This document shows positions 31,901-42,333 of a stretch of 64,000 nucleotides of DNA, one piece after another. Origin of the DNA: Tequatrovirus LF73P3. The notes below the pieces were generated by a model, which did no database searches, was not told the DNA's origin, and saw only the letters and a program-made list of their open reading frames with translations. The DNA lies in sequence record OZ035756.1; one strand, 5' to 3'. The position numbers were made by a program, and so were the translations under genes. The number at the start of each line of letters is the position of its first letter. The first letter of the stretch is position 1.

Positions 31901-32479
31901 TTAATTACCACGGGCTGCATTAGCAACGGCGTAAGCATACTGAACATTAGCGTCTTTAAACGTACCTTTAGAGGTATCTATTTCTGCCTTAAAGCCGCCT
32001 TTAGCCATAACATCAGCAAATTCTTTACGGAAAGCCATTGCATCAAGACCTTTCCATGATGATTTATGCTTGGCAAATTCAAGACCGGCGAAGTTGACAG
32101 CCTTAGCCAATTTATTGTCAATAACCCATTTACCAGCTTTAGGCACAAACACCGGGCCTTTCTGCTTAGAGAATAGTTTTAAATTCCAGCGACGAAGGTC
32201 ACTGTCAGCTTTAACAAAAGCTGCGTCCAAGTTACTAGCAACAACATCTTGAATATGGCCAAATTTAAGCCCATCAACTTCAATATTTAGATCGGTACGC
32301 CAGCGAAGTCCTTCCCAAGCGAAGGCTTTAAAATCAGAAGCTTTTGTGGCTAGATATCGTTCAAGTGGAGCAGTTTTAGGGTCAAAGCCGTTTCCGCCAC
32401 GATAAGTCCACTCGTCCTTATTAATGCCTTGAGCTTTTCCTGCAAAGGCCTCGGCGATAAATTCTTTATACGTTTTCAT
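31901..32479 (-). CDS. ipIII: internal head protein IPIII
   Basis: 192 aa; N-terminal capsid targeting sequence MKTYKEFIAEA, basic Ala/Lys-rich body. Confidence 0.8.
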   Translation of the reverse strand: MKTYKEFIAEAFAGKAQGINKDEWTYRGGNGFDPKTAPLERYLATKASDFKAFAWEGLRWRTDLNIEVDGLKFGHIQDVVASNLDAAFVKADSDLRRWNLKLFSKQKGPVFVPKAGKWVIDNKLAKAVNFAGLEFAKHKSSWKGLDAMAFRKEFADVMAKGGFKAEIDTSKGTFKDANVQYAYAVANAARGN

Positions 32480-32540: not shown

Positions 32541-32867
32541 TTAAGCTTTACCGCCAGAAATAATTCCGAAGTTGTTAAAATCGTATCCAATATCGTCAAC
32601 ATCTACTTTAGGGCTTGCTACAACATAAGCAATTTCACTACGTTTTGCATAGGTGTTTATTTCTTTACCATTGCCGCCTAAGAAAGAATACCCATTACGT
32701 TTTAATGAGCCAAAATCTTCGGCATCACCAATGAAAGCTTTAACTTTAAATTTGGGGGCCTTTGGCATCTGCTTCAGCGATAAATTCTTGATACATTTTA
32801 ATTTTTCCTTAGTAAATTGATTTACCATAGTATTTGTACCAAGTAGGACGTTGAGCAATTTTTTCAT
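32541..32867 (-). CDS. hypothetical protein (start uncertain; overlaps denV end)
   Basis: 108 aa track ORF; internal Met starts at 32828 or 32768 more likely. Confidence 0.35.
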
Positions 32868-33222
32868 CTAAGCGTGCTTGACTTATCGCAATGGACGCTT
32901 CGTCCGGGACATAATTATTACGAAATTCGGCAGGGATGTCGGAAATATCCTGGACAGTCGTGTCCTTGATTTTGAAACCACGTTTCAAGCATTCAGCGAT
33001 TAGCTCGATTTGACGTAAACGTAAAAATTCGAGCTTGTCGTAAAAGAATGTTACGTGACCTGTGCCTAATATAAATGTTGGAGAGATTTTAAAATCCTTT
33101 ACACATTTACCGTTTTGAACATGTTTACGGACTGCACCAAATACGCGTGGTAATTCACGATACTCTGCCATAAGATGTTGGTCGGTCAGTTCAGAAACAA
33201 GTGTTAAATTGATACGGGTCAT
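32809..33222 (-). CDS. denV: endonuclease V (pyrimidine dimer DNA glycosylase)
   Basis: [12 protein letters not shown]...[19 protein letters not shown]...[10 protein letters not shown]; start at Met5 of track ORF; matches T4 DenV. Confidence 0.9.
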
Positions 33223-33246
33223 AATTTCCTCCAAGTAGTTGATGAA

Positions 33247-33280: not shown

Positions 33281-33281
<1 letters not shown>
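33247..33281 (-). promoter_or_regulatory. early sigma70-type promoter upstream of denV
   Basis: Minus strand GTTTAC...TGATACTATACATTC. Confidence 0.45.
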
Positions 33282-34083
<802 letters not shown>

Positions 34084-35380: not shown

Positions 35381-35775
35381 CGTGATTCCTTAACAAATTT
35401 CATAATTTCATTAAATTCATACTTAGCAAGTTTAATCTGGTGTTCCTTTTTAATCTTTTTACACTGGGCTTTCCAATCACGTACGCGTTTACGATAATGT
35501 CTTCCTTGATACCAGTATCCTACCCAATTTACGGGTACTAATAAAAGTGGAACTACCAATGGAAGAATTAGCATTAACACAAGTATTTCGCCAGAATCAA
35601 TATCAGTCATAACATCTAAAACACCTCCAATAATCAATAGAATTACAAATGATATAAGTATAACAGGACCTATTAATACATCGGTAGAAATTATCTGGTG
35701 CTTTGATTCATACTTCACAGGTTTACTTGGAAGGTATAGTGATGGCTTTGACATATTCTCTACATTCCTTAACAA
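35362..35775 (-). CDS. membrane protein, member of triplicated paralog array
   Basis: 137 aa; TM segments; C-terminal KAQCKKIKKEH...FVKESRCKSQD. Confidence 0.5.
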   Translation of the reverse strand: MLRNVENMSKPSLYLPSKPVKYESKHQIISTDVLIGPVILISFVILLIIGGVLDVMTDIDSGEILVLMLILPLVVPLLLVPVNWVGYWYQGRHYRKRVRDWKAQCKKIKKEHQIKLAKYEFNEIMKFVKESRCKSQD

Positions 35776-36337
35776 ATTTTTCTAATAATAAATCGCTTTC
35801 AAAATTGGGATTTTCCACGAATTTATCAAAAAGATCATCAACAATAGTTAAGATATTCTTTTTACTAAGAATACGCTTATTTTCATGCTTCGTTTCAGAA
35901 TCAACTATAAGAGTAAAGAAATATTTCTTTCCCTGAAATTTTACCGTAGTATCAATATAAAATAAATTTGACTTTTGTAAATTACGTTTAAACCATGCGT
36001 CACTTAAACTATAAACGCCAAGATAATCATAATCGTCATTTAAATAACAAACTGTCCATTCAGGAGAAATGAAATCAGTAAATTCAACATCAAAATCACA
36101 TGTCAATGAATGAATTGATTCAATACTTTTAATGAGTATTCCAGGACGTATTAAAGACTTTTTACCTCTACAAAATCTTCCAGAAAGACTTTCATCAGTT
36201 TCATATGAAGACCCCCAATAATAATTACGTCCTTCTGCCATACGTTTAAGAGCATTTAGTAATTGGTCTGGAACATCAACCTGTCTTTGGAACTCTTCAA
36301 ACATTGAATTGAAATCACTTTGCATTTTCATTTTCAT
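35723..36337 (-). CDS. hypothetical protein
   Basis: 204 aa ORF. Confidence 0.55.
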   Translation of the reverse strand: MKMKMQSDFNSMFEEFQRQVDVPDQLLNALKRMAEGRNYYWGSSYETDESLSGRFCRGKKSLIRPGILIKSIESIHSLTCDFDVEFTDFISPEWTVCYLNDDYDYLGVYSLSDAWFKRNLQKSNLFYIDTTVKFQGKKYFFTLIVDSETKHENKRILSKKNILTIVDDLFDKFVENPNFESDLLLEKFVKECREYVKAITIPSK

Positions 36338-36378: not shown

Positions 36379-36972
36379 TTATTTCAGAGAATTAATGTAT
36401 TCCTGGACATCGGCAGAGGTAGTTTCAACCCCGGAAATATTACCGTTAAAGGTTTCAACTCGAGCAAGAGTATCTTCAATATCAACCTTAGTCAGCGCTG
36501 CAATTTCAACTACATCATCAGCAGTACTAATTCCAAGGGCATTTGCTGCGCGAGTTTCACGGATATATTCCAATTTAACTGCAAGTTCTTGCCGAGCATC
36601 ATCTAACTCAACTACTTTCTTGGCGATTTCAATTCGCATTTCAGCATAACCATCAGCTTTAGTAGTCAACTGTTCAGCTGTTCGACGATATAGCAAGCCG
36701 AGTTTAGCGTGCATTGTTACATCTTGACCTTCAGAAAGAAGTTTACGAATTTCACGCTCTTTTGATTCGGCCTGTCGATTCTTTTCGATAACAAGTTCAC
36801 GAATACGCTTTTCTTCATTAATAGATTTAACAGAAGCAGTTTTTAGATCTTTAATTTTATCAAGTAGTTTTGCTGCTGCAGCAGTATACTGTTCTTCAAC
36901 AGATAAATTTTTAGCCATAGCAGAACCAAGTTTAGTGCGAATAAACTCAACAATTTTCTTCAGTGTGTTCAT
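36379..36972 (-). CDS. coiled-coil protein, possibly PspA/IM30-like
   Basis: 197 aa, long amphipathic helices; weak resemblance to PspA C-terminal LARxExF motif. Confidence 0.5.
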
Positions 36973-38067: not shown

Positions 38068-38098
38068 TACCAAAAAGCCCTATCATTTAGATAGGGAT
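38068..38098 (-). terminator. rho-independent terminator after CTS-protein gene
   Basis: Minus strand CCCUAUC-UAAAU-GAUAGGG followed by CUUUUUGG. Confidence 0.5.
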
Positions 38099-38104
38099 TT
38101 AAAA

Positions 38105-38668
38105 TTATTTATCTAGTTTAGTTATTATAGCTTCGGCAGCAGCTTTTAGCTTAGATGCGGTGTTAATACGATTTTTAATTTCAGTATACGCATCGCCAAG
38201 AACGTCGAGGCTATCAGAATAAACACTTACACTATTGCGTTCGCTATTTGAAATAGAACCTTTAGTTTTACGATCAAAATCAGTGTACACGTCTTGAAGA
38301 TCACGGGCTGCCTTCTTTGCATCATCCAATGCATCAAGAGCTTTATTCAAAGCATTAACGTATTTTTTAGTGTCGAACATATTCTTAGAAATTTTAACAG
38401 GTGCACGTTCAGGAGTAGCTAAGGCAGATTTAGGAACCTGAGCGCCTGATGCTAATTTCTTAGAAATTTTGAAAAATGCTTTATTGAATTTATTTTCTTG
38501 ACTCATCGTAAAAGAACTATTATCAATGTTATACATTTCAATAGCTTTAGCTTTCCACTTAAGAAAATCGCCACGGTCTTTTGGGTCCAATTGGAAGAAT
38601 ACTTTAGTAAGATCTGCTTCAGATGGTAATTTTGCTGCTTCGGTTAAAAATTCGGCATAGGTTTTCAT
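38105..38668 (-). CDS. internal-protein-like capsid-targeted protein (CTS-bearing)
   Basis: 187 aa; N-terminal MKTYAEFLTEA matches the capsid targeting sequence/prohead-protease cleavage context of T4 internal proteins. Confidence 0.6.
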   Translation of the reverse strand: MKTYAEFLTEAAKLPSEADLTKVFFQLDPKDRGDFLKWKAKAIEMYNIDNSSFTMSQENKFNKAFFKISKKLASGAQVPKSALATPERAPVKISKNMFDTKKYVNALNKALDALDDAKKAARDLQDVYTDFDRKTKGSISNSERNSVSVYSDSLDVLGDAYTEIKNRINTASKLKAAAEAIITKLDK

Positions 38669-38756
38669 TTAAAATCCTTGAAATAATTTATCGGTTGGTT
38701 ATTAATTATTTATTACTTTGTTATTATCCGTAACAGCATTCTCTATGTGATTCAAA

Positions 38757-38792
38757 CTAAAAAGCCCCAACCTTTCGGTCGGGGCTAAGCCT
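38757..38792 (-). terminator. strong rho-independent terminator ending the tRNA/stable-RNA transcription unit
   Basis: Minus strand GCCCCGACC-GAAA-GGUUGGGGC (9 bp stem) followed by UUUUUAG. Confidence 0.75.
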
Positions 38793-38794
38793 TG

Positions 38795-39090
38795 CGGCAA
38801 CCTTGTCGGGGTTCCACCTGCTAAGGCAAGTGTTTGTACGAAACGCCGGGATTCGAACCCGGTTATTAAGCAGTTGACGCTACTCAATATTTTTAAAAGG
38901 CCATATCTCGACCATATCCGAACGTTCCGTCAAAAACGCTACTCGGCTTACGGCAAAGATATTTCCTCGAATCGATAATTCGATGCGCCGTTTCTGCTGT
39001 GATAGTAAAGAATCAGAACACAGTAAAACTGTGGGAGAAACTATACTCCAGGGAACATCAGTCCGACGACTTACCGGTAGCGACCCGGTT
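38795..39090 (-). ncRNA. candidate small stable RNA(s) with tRNA-like T-arm (not a canonical tRNA)
   Basis: Minus strand CCGGG-UUCGAAU-CCCGG T-arm-like hairpin at 38845-38865, locally GC-rich, between tRNA-Arg unit and the terminator. Confidence 0.4.
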
Positions 39091-39092
39091 TC

Positions 39093-39443
39093 TTAATATT
39101 CTTTTAAAGCATCAATCTGTTCACGACGTTTACGCCATAAATCAATTGCTTCATACGCAGATTCAGCATTTCGAATTGGACGGCATTTATATAAAGACTT
39201 GTGATTTTGATATTGTGTAGATAATGGAATTTTATCTAAAAGGTCTTTACGTTCAAAGTATTCGTAACCATCTAAACCAAATGAACGATTTTTGAGAAAT
39301 TGCCAATGACCATATTCATTTTCGACATAAACATAATCCGCGTGTTGATAAAGCAAATTAATTACACGTTCAGAAATAACAGTGTCATTGTGATTAAAAT
39401 AAAATGTTAAATCATGAACTACTAAATAAACATTACCTTTCAT
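39093..39443 (-). CDS. hypothetical protein within tRNA region
   Basis: 116 aa ORF starting 17 nt downstream of tRNA-Arg. Confidence 0.45.
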   Translation of the reverse strand: MKGNVYLVVHDLTFYFNHNDTVISERVINLLYQHADYVYVENEYGHWQFLKNRSFGLDGYEYFERKDLLDKIPLSTQYQNHKSLYKCRPIRNAESAYEAIDLWRKRREQIDALKEY

Positions 39444-39459
39444 ATTTTCCTCACTTAAT

Positions 39460-39535
39460 TGGTCGAGGCAGTAGGGATCGAACCTACGACCTAGGACTTA
39501 GAAGGTCCTTGCTCTTCCTTCTGAGCTATGCCTCG
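39460..39535 (-). tRNA. tRNA-Arg (anticodon UCU)
   Basis: Cloverleaf by hand: 7-bp acceptor CGAGGCA/UGCCUCG, anticodon loop CUUCUAA, T-loop GGUUCGAUCC, encoded CCA. Confidence 0.85.
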
Positions 39536-39538
39536 TAG

Positions 39539-40204
39539 TTAAAATTTCATTTTTCGACCTTTAAACCATCCTTCTGGAATTGGGTCAGTTTTCTTAATAC
39601 GTTTAGAAACTTTTTCATCTAATGAATGAATCCACATCATACCAAATTGGGAATTCTTTTCACCTTTTTGGTGATTATTTTTAGCGTGAATTTCTTTCAT
39701 TTTATTAATAGTTTCAAGAGTATGATGCTTATTTAAAAATCGGCTATTATTTAAAAATTTTTCTTTGTATTCAGGAGTTGACCACAAACGTTTAAATACA
39801 TTTGAACCATTTTTACGATATTTTTCTTGAAGTAAAATATCATTTTTAAAACGTGACTTAAACGATTTAGCTCCTTTTAAACTAGCGTCTTTCTTCTGAT
39901 TTAGCATCTCAGGAATATTTATATGATCCCATCCACCTTCACCGCCAAGTTTTAAATTATACACATCAGGTCTATTTAAAAACTCTTCTGTGACAATATT
40001 TTTCTCGGCTTCAAGCATAGATTCTTTATCGTCAAAATATTCTAATATTTCTTTAGAAAAATTTTCTATACCATACCTGTCTTGGGCTCTTTTTAATAAT
40101 TTACCAGAACCCATATATCCATCATCTAAATTTTCGGTAGAATGCACACCAATATAAATTTTATTATTAATTTTATTTGTTATTTTATAAAGATAAAAAT
40201 GCAT
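39539..40204 (-). CDS. segB: GIY-YIG homing endonuclease SegB
   Basis: 221 aa from MHFYLYKITNKINNKIYIGVHS (GIY-YIG) ... GYMGSGKLL; track ORF N-extension runs into tRNA genes. Confidence 0.8.
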   Translation of the reverse strand: MHFYLYKITNKINNKIYIGVHSTENLDDGYMGSGKLLKRAQDRYGIENFSKEILEYFDDKESMLEAEKNIVTEEFLNRPDVYNLKLGGEGGWDHINIPEMLNQKKDASLKGAKSFKSRFKNDILLQEKYRKNGSNVFKRLWSTPEYKEKFLNNSRFLNKHHTLETINKMKEIHAKNNHQKGEKNSQFGMMWIHSLDEKVSKRIKKTDPIPEGWFKGRKMKF

Positions 40205-40250
40205 ATCAGTCCCTAATAAAGAACTGAGCGTCTCACGACGAGTCATAAAT

Positions 40251-40337
40251 TGGTGGGGAGTGATGGAGTCGAACCACCCGAGTCGCAATGACAATGGATT
40301 TACAGTCCACACCGCTACCTCTACGGGATAACTCCCC
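40251..40337 (-). tRNA. class-II tRNA with anticodon GUA (tRNA-Tyr-like)
   Basis: Hand fold: perfect 7-bp acceptor GGGGAGU/ACUCCCC, anticodon loop CUGUAAA, long variable arm, T-loop UUCGACU, encoded CCA. Confidence 0.6.
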
Positions 40338-40346
40338 TAATTAATT

Positions 40347-40423
40347 TGGTGACCCAGACCAGATTTGAACTGGTAACCTTTCCCTTATGAGGGGACTGCT
40401 GCTAACCATTGAGCTACAGGGCC
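40347..40423 (-). tRNA. tRNA-Ile (anticodon CAU, presumably lysidine-modified)
   Basis: GGCCCUGUAGCUCAAUGGUUAGCAG...CUCAUAA...GGUUCAAAUC...ACCA. Confidence 0.8.
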
Positions 40424-40424
40424 T

Positions 40425-40500
40425 TGGTGCTGATTGACGGAATCGAACCGCCGACATCCTCATTACAAGTGAGGCGCTCTACCTACTGAGCTAAATCAGC
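40425..40500 (-). tRNA. tRNA-Thr (anticodon UGU)
   Basis: GCUGAUUUAGCUCAGUAGGUAGAGC...CUUGUAA...GGUUCGAUUCC...ACCA. Confidence 0.85.
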
Positions 40501-40502
40501 AA

Positions 40503-40589
40503 CGGAGGCGATAGGATTTGAACCTATGAGTCGCCGGAGCGACTGCCGGTTTTCAAGACCGGTGCATTAAACCACTCTGCCACGCCTCC
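40503..40589 (-). tRNA. tRNA-Ser (anticodon UGA), class II
   Basis: GGAGGCGUGGCAGAGUGG...CUUGAAA..., long variable arm, no encoded CCA. Confidence 0.85.
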
Positions 40590-40591
40590 AG

Positions 40592-40665
40592 TCTCCGCGG
40601 CAGGATTTGAACCTGCGACATTCTGCTCCCAAAGCAGACACTCTACCAAACTGAGCTACACGGAG
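40592..40665 (-). tRNA. tRNA-Pro (anticodon UGG)
   Basis: CUCCGUGUAGCUCAGUUUGGUAGAG...UUUGGGA...GGUUCAAAUCC; abuts tRNA-Ser (dimeric precursor arrangement). Confidence 0.85.
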
Positions 40666-40675
40666 TAAATTAAAT

Positions 40676-40749
<74 letters not shown>

Positions 40750-40754
40750 AAATT

Positions 40755-40841
40755 TGGTGCGAGAAGTGGGACTCGAACCCACAAGGAAATCATTCCGCAG
40801 CATTTTAAGTGCTGTGTCTTTACCAATTTGACCATTCTCGC
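40755..40841 (-). tRNA. tRNA-Leu (anticodon UAA), class II
   Basis: GCGAGAAUGGUCAAAUUGGUAAAG...CUUAAAA...GGUUCGAGUCCCACUUCUCGCACCA. Confidence 0.9.
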
Positions 40842-40842
40842 G

Positions 40843-40915
40843 CTGGGAATAAAGGACTCGAACCTTTGCATCTAGCAGTCAAAGTGCTATGCCTTACCAA
40901 CTTGGCTAATTCCCA
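40843..40915 (-). tRNA. tRNA-Gln (anticodon UUG)
   Basis: UGGGAAUUAGCCAAGUUGGUAAGGC...CUUUGAC...GGUUCGAGUCC; directly abuts tRNA-Leu. Confidence 0.85.
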
Positions 40916-40982
40916 ATTATTAACAAAGGCTCTCTAACAAGAACCCTTGATGATAGAGGGTATTAATCAGTGCGATATGAGT

Positions 40983-41010
40983 TAATAATAACAAATAATT
41001 CTTAAAGCAT
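40983..41010 (-). promoter_or_regulatory. candidate MotA-type middle promoter for the tRNA cluster
   Basis: Minus strand ATGCTTTAAG (mot-box-like) + about 12 nt + TATTAT, about 70 nt upstream of tRNA-Gln. Confidence 0.3.
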
Positions 41011-41012
41011 AT

Positions 41013-41300
41013 TTACCATTTATGATAATACATATTTACGATGCATTCAAGACCCAAAGGATTCTTGAAAATATCATATTCAAGAGGACCTTTTTCTGTT
41101 TCAATAAAGAAATCAAAATTTACTGTATTAAATTTACGGTCTTCCTTTACTAATTTAACTTGAGAAGATGAACGGTCAGTGTAAACCTTTTCAACTTCAA
41201 AACATGTTAAAATGCCATAATCATCAATCAAGGCTTTAGCTGCTTCTTGATCATATTTATATCCATTTTCAATGGATGATACTTTCGCATAAAGAATCAT
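41013..41300 (-). CDS. hypothetical protein
   Basis: 95 aa ORF. Confidence 0.45.
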   Translation of the reverse strand: MILYAKVSSIENGYKYDQEAAKALIDDYGILTCFEVEKVYTDRSSSQVKLVKEDRKFNTVNFDFFIETEKGPLEYDIFKNPLGLECIVNMYYHKW

Positions 41301-41302
41301 TA

Positions 41303-41707
41303 TTAACCTTTATCAACAATAGTATGTGTATGGGCATTTACGATTTGCCACCAATCGAAACTATCGCCAAATCGTTTTGATTTATTGTCTTCAATAATTT
41401 GGCGTAATTCATCTTCTGTTTCAGCATACGCAATCAAATCATCATATCCACCGCAAGGATAGTAATTATCGCCTGCGAACAAAAGAAAATTTACTTTAGA
41501 TGGGTCTACATAATAATGCTCTTTAGGATATTTAGTTCCTCTCCAATCAGTTACTTCAACATAACGATAAGAAAATCCATTTTTACTTTCAATCCAACTC
41601 CACGCTTCAAAAGGAGTATTAAAAACTTTATCAGGTATTAAATTACCTTCAAAATGAGAAGGATTTGCATAATCCCCGGCATAAACATAATATTCGTTAA
41701 TACTCAT
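41303..41707 (-). CDS. hypothetical protein
   Basis: 134 aa ORF, aromatic-rich. Confidence 0.5.
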   Translation of the reverse strand: MSINEYYVYAGDYANPSHFEGNLIPDKVFNTPFEAWSWIESKNGFSYRYVEVTDWRGTKYPKEHYYVDPSKVNFLLFAGDNYYPCGGYDDLIAYAETEDELRQIIEDNKSKRFGDSFDWWQIVNAHTHTIVDKG

Positions 41708-41932
41708 TTATTCACCTTTAGAAATTTTATCCATAACGATAGCGATTAAACCAATTAAAAATGCTACTACAAGTGAAAACACATTTTCTGCTGTAGTTAA
41801 TAATCCGCATATAAATCCAACAAACATTGAAAAACTAAAAGCAGAAGCAGAAACTGCAATAGCAACATTTCGAATTAATTCACAACGTTTCATTTTTATT
41901 CTCCTCAGTAGTTGATAGGGTAATAATATCAC
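41708..41932 (-). CDS. small membrane protein
   Basis: 74 aa; two hydrophobic segments. Confidence 0.45.
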   Translation of the reverse strand: MILLPYQLLRRIKMKRCELIRNVAIAVSASAFSFSMFVGFICGLLTTAENVFSLVVAFLIGLIAIVMDKISKGE

Positions 41933-41954
41933 TACCCCATCTAAAAGTAAACGG
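41915..41954 (-). promoter_or_regulatory. early sigma70-type promoter
   Basis: Minus strand GTTTAC + spacer + TA-rich -10. Confidence 0.4.
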
Positions 41955-41962
41955 TTTATAAA

Positions 41963-42271
41963 CTATTTTATTCCGCGTGATGCAATTGTGTTCTGCCGTT
42001 TAACACCAGTTTGTTTAAAGTCATGATTGTCGATTTGATCGGTACGAGCAACTCCGAATGATGATTTGATCTTAGCTTTAGATCCTTTAGTTATAGAAAT
42101 AAACATCTCGGAAGCCCCTTTCTTAAAGTCCGAAGCGATTACTTCAACGCCGTTCTTAGCAAGTGACTTCAGAATTGCCTCTGCATACTCATCGTCAAGA
42201 CTCGTCTGAGTATTAATAACGAATGTCTTTGGCGCAGCCGCTTCATTGATAAATTCTTTAAATGTTTTCAT
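41963..42271 (-). CDS. internal-protein I-like capsid-targeted protein
   Basis: 102 aa; N-terminal CTS MKTFKEFINEA; sits at the ipI position next to 57B. Confidence 0.6.
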   Translation of the reverse strand: MKTFKEFINEAAAPKTFVINTQTSLDDEYAEAILKSLAKNGVEVIASDFKKGASEMFISITKGSKAKIKSSFGVARTDQIDNHDFKQTGVKRQNTIASRGIK

Positions 42272-42299
42272 TTTATTTTCCTAATTAATTTTGATGAGA

Positions 42300-42333
42300 T
42301 AATAGTATCACTACCTCATCAGCATGTAAACAA
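42300..42333 (-). promoter_or_regulatory. early sigma70-type promoter upstream of ipI-like gene
   Basis: Minus strand TTCACAAAGTTGTTTAC...GATACTATTATC. Confidence 0.5.

Follow-up and report, generated by a model that had tools for sequence, protein, structure and literature searches.

The internal proteins (IPs) of phage T4 carry an N-terminal capsid-targeting sequence (CTS) that docks them in the prohead; they are then cleaved by the prohead protease gp21, retained in the head and injected together with the DNA (Mullaney and Black, 1996, as cited in PMC9391042). T4 Ip1, Ip2 and Ip3 (IPI, IPII and IPIII) each block a different GmrSD (PMC12373910), IPI/IPI* being an inhibitor of GmrSD from Escherichia coli CT596, and the CTS protein Bas37_0260, encoded at the ipI locus of phage Bas37 (KarlGJung), blocks McrBC (bioRxiv 10.1101/2025.11.20.689424). 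Here we analysed two genes for CTS proteins in a 64,000-nucleotide (nt) stretch of Tequatrovirus LF73P3 DNA (OZ035756.1; the whole of this stretch is referred to as the window). One encodes Ip7, an already known allele of the ipI locus. The other encodes a protein of 187 amino acids (aa) whose family is conserved and carries a CTS, and is not annotated as an internal protein in databases. We consider it fairly probable that both are packaged, protease-trimmed and injected proteins, and plausible that they are anti-restriction factors.

The window has the T4 gene order (gene 1, 57A, 57B, ip locus, trna.4-2, tRNAs and segB, rnaD/rnaC, e.8 to e.1); genes 21 and 22 fall outside it. About 1000 phage records match it, the best of them covering 80-87% of the region at 94-96% identity. 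A preliminary description, made from the sequence alone, had placed two CTS genes at 38105-38668 and 41963-42271, on either side of the tRNA cluster. Both open reading frames (ORFs) lie there, stop codons included, on the minus strand; they encode proteins of 187 and 102 aa and are separated by nine tRNAs (39460-40915). Alignment with T4 IPI, IPII and IPIII bore out a T4-type CTS with a predicted cleavage site after Glu10 in each. The 187-aa protein begins with MKTYAEFLTE↓AA and the 102-aa protein with MKTFKEFINE↓AA (arrows, predicted cleavage), compared with MKTYQEFIAE↓A in T4 IPII/IPIII, and both N-termini also align with the first 7 residues of T4 IPI. The recognition motif of gp21 is (L/I)-x-E. 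Each protein has one such site, at residues 8-10 and followed by a small residue (LTE↓A in the 187-aa protein, INE↓A in the 102-aa protein).

Two proved to be an undercount. A regular-expression scan of all six frames, covering 593 ATG-started ORFs of at least 40 aa, returned four matches to the CTS pattern in the window, the additional ones being an IPIII orthologue and an Ip5-like ORF. The number expected by chance from amino-acid frequencies was 2e-4, and 200 shuffles yielded none. The 187-aa gene is the only one of the four that lacks an internal-protein label. The four genes, with the CTS codons of the two considered here, are as follows.

38105-38668, minus strand: gene for the 187-aa CTS protein (ORF; phrog_2280 family; mature form about 177 aa, 19.7 kDa, isoelectric point (pI) 9.46)
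38639-38668, minus strand: CTS codons of the 187-aa gene, MKTYAEFLTE, predicted cleavage after Glu10 (alignment)
41963-42271, minus strand: ip7, 102 aa (ORF; 99% identity to RB15 Ip7; phrog_2667; mature form about 92 aa, 9.9 kDa, pI 9.65)
42242-42271, minus strand: CTS codons of ip7, MKTFKEFINE, predicted cleavage after Glu10 (alignment with T4 IPI/II/III)
31901-32479, minus strand: IPIII orthologue, fourth CTS gene, 192 aa (CTS scan and alignment; phrog_5341, E 3e-117)
33281-33562, minus strand: Ip5-like protein, third CTS gene, 93 aa, directly downstream of lysozyme e (phrog_3499, 'internal head protein'; 48% identity to RB15 Ip5)

The 102-aa protein is an allele known already, Ip7, named in 1994 and widely annotated as an internal head protein. 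It is 99% identical over 102 aa to RB15 Ip7 (Z35082; Repoila et al., 1994), is equally close to the T2 copy, and matches phrog_2667 ('internal head protein') with an E value of 5e-41. Ip7 occurs in 283 phage records, those of Klebsiella and Enterobacter phages among them at 47-93% identity, and both Ip7 and the 187-aa protein are 100% identical to those of phage vB_EcoM_SP1. The gene occupies, as the preliminary description had it, the position of T4 ipI between 57B and trna.4, a known polymorphic IP locus, where RB15 carries the same allele with the same CTS. In the window ip7 is the only cassette of this locus, whereas RB15 has four (Ip5, Ip9, Ip7, Ip8), T2 two and G4498 three. Relative to T4 the replacement is limited to the body of ipI, with 97% homology running from 57B through the promoter cassette and the first 22 nt of coding sequence. 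Because these 22 nt are identical to those of T4 ipI, the recombination junction between ipI and ip7 is placed inside the CTS codons. T4 IPI itself has a 19-residue leader (cleavage after ...ITE) and a body unrelated to Ip7. Two elements flank the gene.

42292-42330, minus strand: PeSL-type early-promoter/stem-loop cassette upstream of ip7, with GTTTAC as -35, TACTAT as -10 and a 13-bp stem (promoter scan)
41923-41951, minus strand: second early-promoter-like element, downstream of ip7 and upstream of trna.4, forming the right-hand cassette boundary (promoter scan)

The upstream cassette, whose stem-loop has a folding energy of -14.8 kcal/mol (z = -3.6), is almost the same as the region upstream of T4 ipI, and its GTTTAC/-10 layout is also found in T4 ipII and ipIII. 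The downstream element shows 77% similarity to the sequence that flanks T4 ipI on its other side. Early-promoter stem-loop repeats (GTTTAC...TAnnAT) are thus present on both sides of ip7, as in modular ipI-locus cassettes, an architecture that has already been described for this locus.

A variable internal-protein locus had been proposed for both genes; the proposal holds for ip7 and fails for the 187-aa gene, which lies in a separate syntenic slot between rnaC and e.8. Nor is the 187-aa protein an allele of ipII or ipIII. It is close to IPIII in size, and hhalign comparison limits the similarity to residues 1-12 (IPII) or 1-25 (IPIII), the CTS being all that the proteins have in common. Whereas T4 ipII and ipIII have early-promoter stem-loop cassettes, the 187-aa gene has no such cassette, belongs to a different locus and is placed between two terminators. 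The elements of this unit are listed below.

38097-38755, minus strand: 659-bp segment with no T4 or T2 counterpart at this position, comprising an 87-nt leader, the 187-aa gene and a terminator (blastn against T4, junction alignment, T2 locus)
38763-38786, minus strand: rnaC intrinsic terminator, immediately upstream of the 187-aa unit (terminator scan; homologue of the T4 rnaC 3' end)
38078-38096, minus strand: intrinsic terminator of the 187-aa gene itself (terminator scan; fold -10.5 kcal/mol, z = -3.1)
38707-38714, minus strand: AATAAATA, agreeing with the T4 late promoter TATAAATA at 7 of 8 positions and located 39-46 nt before the start codon of the 187-aa gene

The 187-aa gene is a terminator-insulated single-gene unit between the rnaC terminator (fold -20.3 kcal/mol, z = -3.7) and the sequence preceding e.8, outside the ipI locus, and the junction of the segment with T4-like sequence falls in GGGCTTTTT microhomology. 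The promoter scan found no GTTTAC early promoter upstream of the gene, unlike T4 ipI/II/III and the ip7 and ipIII genes of the window, and it is bounded by two intrinsic terminators and not by promoter/stem-loop repeats. The ATAAATA core of the late-promoter-like element was unchanged in 10 of 10 leaders of orthologues, although indels occur close by. Late-only expression of the gene is plausible, given the lack of an early promoter, the late-promoter-like AATAAATA and the terminators on both sides.

The 187-aa protein matches phrog_2280 ('unknown function') over residues 1-181 with an E value of 3e-53, and close orthologues, at 85-100% identity, are present in 164 phage records; among the matches listed, every label reads 'hypothetical protein' or 'Phage protein' (e.g. 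RB14ncORF136c). While a word-indexed search returned a tiny family, an exhaustive HMMER search recovered a distant homologue of 204 aa (32% identity), which, used as a tblastn bridge, led to a wider family of about 350 phage records. Homologues were retrieved from Karamvirus, Marfavirus, Mosigvirus, Dhakavirus, Jiaodavirus and IMG/VR contigs; those of Mosigvirus and Karamvirus and the metagenomic P0027 match phrog_2280 too. In every homologue examined in an annotated record the gene occupies the same slot, downstream of tRNA/rnaC and upstream of the e.8/e.6 homologues or their replacements, and this syntenic position is kept in at least seven genera; the homologues that occupy it in Mosigvirus, Dhakavirus, Karamvirus, Jiaodavirus and Marfavirus are 22-46% identical to the window protein. 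Homologues in six other genera are only 22-30% identical overall to the window protein, and all of them have a CTS-like leader ending in (L/I)-x-E (for example MLNFKEFIAE↓S, MYTFNEFLAE↓T, MKTYNEFLNE↓S, MLKFKDILTE↓S and MKFKDFLTE↓E). No other segment is as well conserved in the family as the CTS (family alignments A5 and A6). Because the peptide has been kept after nucleotide homology decayed, the leader appears to be functional and not a recombination scar.

The ratio of non-synonymous to synonymous substitution rates (dN/dS) among close orthologues of the 187-aa gene was 0.05-0.16 at dS 0.10-0.18; the gene is under strong purifying selection. This ratio, together with the conservation of the two ORFs (283 records for Ip7 and 164 for the 187-aa protein), shows that both are real genes. 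Compared with RB69 (Mosigvirus), nucleotide identity was 95.7% in the 187-aa gene, 91.7% in rnaC/D and 93% in e.8, and fell to 75-79% in genes further out. The identity of these three far exceeds that of their flanks, which indicates that a segment of about 1.3 kb has recently passed between genera.

Several disrupted or rearranged copies of the 187-aa gene were also found. Frameshifts split the copies of RB69 (L010 7429-7991, near residue 122) and OE5505 (L012 801-1363), phage CT01 has an in-frame 25-aa linker deletion between two KISK repeats (L007 1501-1989), and F26 carries a duplicated, stray C-terminal fragment (L011 1592-1714). Two metagenomic ORFs, P0010 and P0028, are chimeras with pieces of the gene, P0028 having an N-terminus like that of e.8 fused to a C-terminal portion of the 187-aa protein. 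On the T4-like metagenomic contig that bears the P0027 gene (CTS MITFNEFLNE↓S; L004 1419-2033), an ART-PolyVal/DUF3990 (ADP-ribosyltransferase-like) gene follows directly (2092-2526).

By analogy with the T4 paradigm, docking, cleavage after Glu10, retention and co-injection most likely apply to both proteins, and we regard their packaging and processing as very likely. As a precursor, each would dock into the prohead scaffolding core through its first 10 residues, and cleavage by gp21 after Glu10 would generate the mature N-termini AAKLPSEADLTK... (187-aa protein) and AAAPKTFVINTQ... (Ip7). The mature proteins, basic (pI about 9.5) and of about 19.7 and 9.9 kDa, would remain with the DNA in the filled head, accompany it into the cell and act ahead of any phage gene expression. 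Once there, the most likely task of each would be to counter a host defence directed at DNA, probably some subtype of type IV restriction enzyme; ip7 would have entered the ipI locus by a cassette exchange between the early-promoter stem-loop repeats. The nearest models for such proteins are T4 IPII and IPIII, CTS-targeted, gp21-processed and injected inhibitors of GmrSD, which have a near-identical CTS and (L/I)-x-E↓A site and which both window proteins resemble in net basic charge. T4 Inh, gp67, gp68 and Alt, whose genes lie outside the window, are likewise head-internal and handled by gp21, but are not known to use the MKT(Y/F)xEF(I/L)xE leader. Since type IV restriction is what all four CTS proteins with assigned targets inhibit, it is reasonable to start from an anti-defence role. 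The assignment of a type IV enzyme as the target is tentative, held with slightly more doubt than belief.

A number of observations weigh against packaged, injected anti-restriction factors as the explanation for both proteins. T2 carries Ip7, yet in a published study GmrSD-ECOR21 and GmrSD-ECOR17 reportedly restrict it when neither Ip2 nor Ip3 is supplied (PMC12373910). Ip7 is therefore probably no inhibitor of these two enzymes, assuming the same T2 stocks, and if it is an anti-restriction protein its target is probably another enzyme. Neither window protein resembled a characterised inhibitor beyond the CTS in hhalign and sequence comparisons with Ip2, Ip3 and Bas37_0260; the last of these has the same CTS as the window proteins, and its similarity to either is essentially confined to it. 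Lack of homology does not, however, exclude the same function, since IPI*, Ip2, Ip3 and Bas37_0260 are mutually unrelated. Single-sequence and profile searches of Pfam, PADLOC and PDB found no PDB or Pfam relative of either protein; the only hits, a weak match to cytochrome b562 and coiled-coil matches, did not rise above noise.

Structure prediction with AlphaFold2 (AF2) was also of little help, the models being moderately (Ip7) or poorly (187-aa protein) confident and without an informative match. In the Ip7 model, which has a predicted local distance difference test score (pLDDT) of 68.8, a beta-alpha-beta-beta-alpha core precedes a basic tail of low confidence. Foldseek matches of this model were weak and generic ferredoxin-like (ACT/RRM-type), with E values above 5e-3 and none at or below 0.001, and none of the 50 matches listed was recognised as an IPI* entry. 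In the model of the 187-aa protein (pLDDT 57.7), the CTS (residues 1-10) is followed by an N-domain made of helices (about 17-73); residues 74-98 form a disordered linker rich in Pro, Ala and Lys, and residues 100-186 a long helical hairpin. Overall, the fold searches matched the models only to their own families or to generic ACT/RRM-like folds, and the sequences and predicted folds gave no pointer to a target for either protein. The literature searched yielded neither virion proteomics nor N-terminal sequencing of the two proteins, and the 187-aa protein was not found described as an internal protein in the searchable literature, older subscription papers being beyond that search. Finally, the 187-aa gene is without an early promoter and its position is conserved across genera, not hypervariable as in the classical IP genes compared with it (T4 ipI-III and the ip7 and ipIII genes of the window), and an 'Essential' call for its Bas37 orthologue fits a purely accessory anti-defence role poorly.

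That orthologue, bas37_0243, is 98.4% identical to the 187-aa protein. In the HIDEN-SEQ transposon screen, insertions were recovered at 1 of its 48 TA sites on E. coli K-12, with the consensus call 'Essential', while its neighbours bas37_0242, 0244 and 0245 were non-essential, as were 0260 and 0261 of the ip locus and T4 ipI/II/III (bioRxiv 10.1101/2025.11.20.689424, Extended Data Table 7); the preprint is silent on bas37_0243. The tolerance of its neighbours and of all other IP genes to insertion would fit a protein that acts mainly as a head-internal structural or assembly factor, in core organisation, DNA condensation or ejection, on which the phages now depend. The same can be said of the syntenic position in at least seven genera, the strong purifying selection, the late-only look of the expression signals, and the basic, all-helical protein with its long coiled hairpin and Pro/Ala/Lys linker, which would suit a DNA- or scaffold-associated role. 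T4 and T2 heads are, however, normal without the 187-aa protein, T4 mutants that lack all three IPs are viable, and frameshifted copies occur in the viable isolates RB69 and OE5505. We consider a mainly structural role unlikely, although for the 187-aa protein it is the leading alternative.

The 'Essential' call by itself is unreliable, because HIDEN-SEQ makes the same call for the known non-essential T4 genes hoc, inh, segE, uvsW, segC and wac, inh being hit at 1 of 49 sites; the frameshifted natural copies counsel the same caution. A promoterless marker inserted in a late-only unit was rejected as the cause of the call for bas37_0243, since the transposon is described as bearing a strong unterminated J23119 promoter (10.1101/2025.11.20.689424). 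A locus-dependent artefact is possible. Among the T4 miscalls, hoc, inh, segE and uvsW form a contiguous block, for which premature expression of the UvsW helicase from the unterminated J23119 promoter is a possible cause; the block bears on the trust to be placed in 'essential' calls for accessory genes. Taken together, we think it doubtful, though by no means far-fetched, that the 187-aa gene is truly required in Bas37. If the call were real, phrog_2280 might be the first CTS-delivered protein that its phage cannot do without: made late and pre-packaged, it would have to arrive with the DNA, and would serve either against a defence that even E. coli K-12 deleted for restriction still has, or in the ejection or establishment of the genome, a need that T4 and T2 would have lost. 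We rate this extension, too, as improbable.

A further possibility is that the 187-aa protein, Ip7 or both are injected effectors with another target, either a different first-line defence present even in K-12 or a component of host takeover (RNA polymerase, nucleoid or protease). In the reference library, all 15 of 15 sites in the gene for the McrBC inhibitor Bas37_0260 were hit, so that this inhibitor is dispensable there, whereas bas37_0243 was scored essential, and because of this the target of the latter would not be McrBC if the requirement in Bas37 is real. The absence of similarity between either protein and the known type IV inhibitors, and the ART-PolyVal ADP-ribosyltransferase-like gene adjoining the distant homologue P0027, point the same way. 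With every assigned target of a CTS protein being a type IV enzyme, and no positive evidence for any other, we judge this rather less probable still than a structural role. It is very improbable that the 187-aa ORF owes its CTS-like N-terminus to recombination alone, as a relic of conserved leader DNA used for crossing over, on a protein neither packaged nor processed. At the ipI locus, junctions between cassettes are indeed located within CTS codons, and chimeric ORFs with pieces of the gene exist, but homologues past the reach of nucleotide homology keep the CTS with motif-preserving substitutions (MLNFKEFIAE, MYTFNEFLAE, MKFKDFLTE and others), which indicates selection on the peptide.

The remaining features of the tRNA–rnaC region and its surroundings are as follows.

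39460-40915, minus strand: cluster of nine tRNAs, broken up by a gene for a segB-like homing endonuclease of the GIY-YIG type (tRNA search; blastn)
39539-40312, minus strand: segB-like GIY-YIG endonuclease gene, between tRNA-Arg and tRNA-Tyr (96% identity to T4 segB over 39539-40190)
38756-39093, minus strand: rnaC/rnaD homologues of the T4 stable RNAs (90% identity)
39093-39443, minus strand: 116-aa ORF, phrog_3355 (unknown function), between rnaD and tRNA-Arg, absent from T4

The tRNA set of the window includes a tRNA-Tyr that T4 lacks. As a mechanical ORF the segB-like gene starts with GTG, encodes 257 aa and overlaps tRNA-Tyr (40251-40337); its real start is probably the ATG at residue 37. 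No Rfam family covers the rnaC/rnaD homologues, which are annotated as small hypothetical coding sequences in several GenBank records. The 116-aa ORF is found in 425 phage records, T2 and RB69 included, and its Bas37 counterpart, bas37_0245, is non-essential in the HIDEN-SEQ table. As a toxin or antidote partner of the 187-aa gene it was rejected, since T2 is among these records and lacks the 187-aa gene.

The ATG of the Ip5-like gene lies 3 nt past the first base of the stop codon of lysozyme e (33559-34047), and the gene sits behind two canonical late promoters, TATAAATA, at 34081 and 34068; the cleavage position of its CTS precedes Ser. The gene order here is e, ip5-like, denV (32809-33234), a 108-aa ORF and ipIII, compared with denV, ipII, ipIII and e in T4, and ipII is absent from this region of the window. 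Homologues of e.5 and e.6 are located at 35723-36337 and 36379-36972 on the minus strand. Their Bas37 orthologues, bas37_0239 and bas37_0240, showed strong host-specific depletion (log2 fold change -3.62 and -6.49, respectively, q = 0) in the first host-comparison sheet of the HIDEN-SEQ data, apparently K-12 versus CFT073 (10.1101/2025.11.20.689424); no mention of it was found in the text of the preprint. A host-specific anti-defence function is thus a possibility for the e.5/e.6 homologues.

Injected internal proteins act before phage gene expression and have been known since 2025 as specific inhibitors of type IV restriction enzymes, which shape the host range of T-even phages; only four CTS internal proteins have assigned targets. 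To these can be added, as candidates, Ip7, a common allele present in T2 and in Klebsiella and Enterobacter phages, and the widespread 187-aa family, which T4-centred work could not see because T4 lacks it. Carrier phages exist (Bas37/KarlGJung, RB14, and RB69 with its frameshifted copy), so that packaging, processing and effects on host range are open to direct testing, and the unexplained 'essential' call in a published screen provides a concrete phenotype for the 187-aa gene. Recognition of these proteins would be of use in the annotation and host-range prediction of therapeutic T4-like phages.

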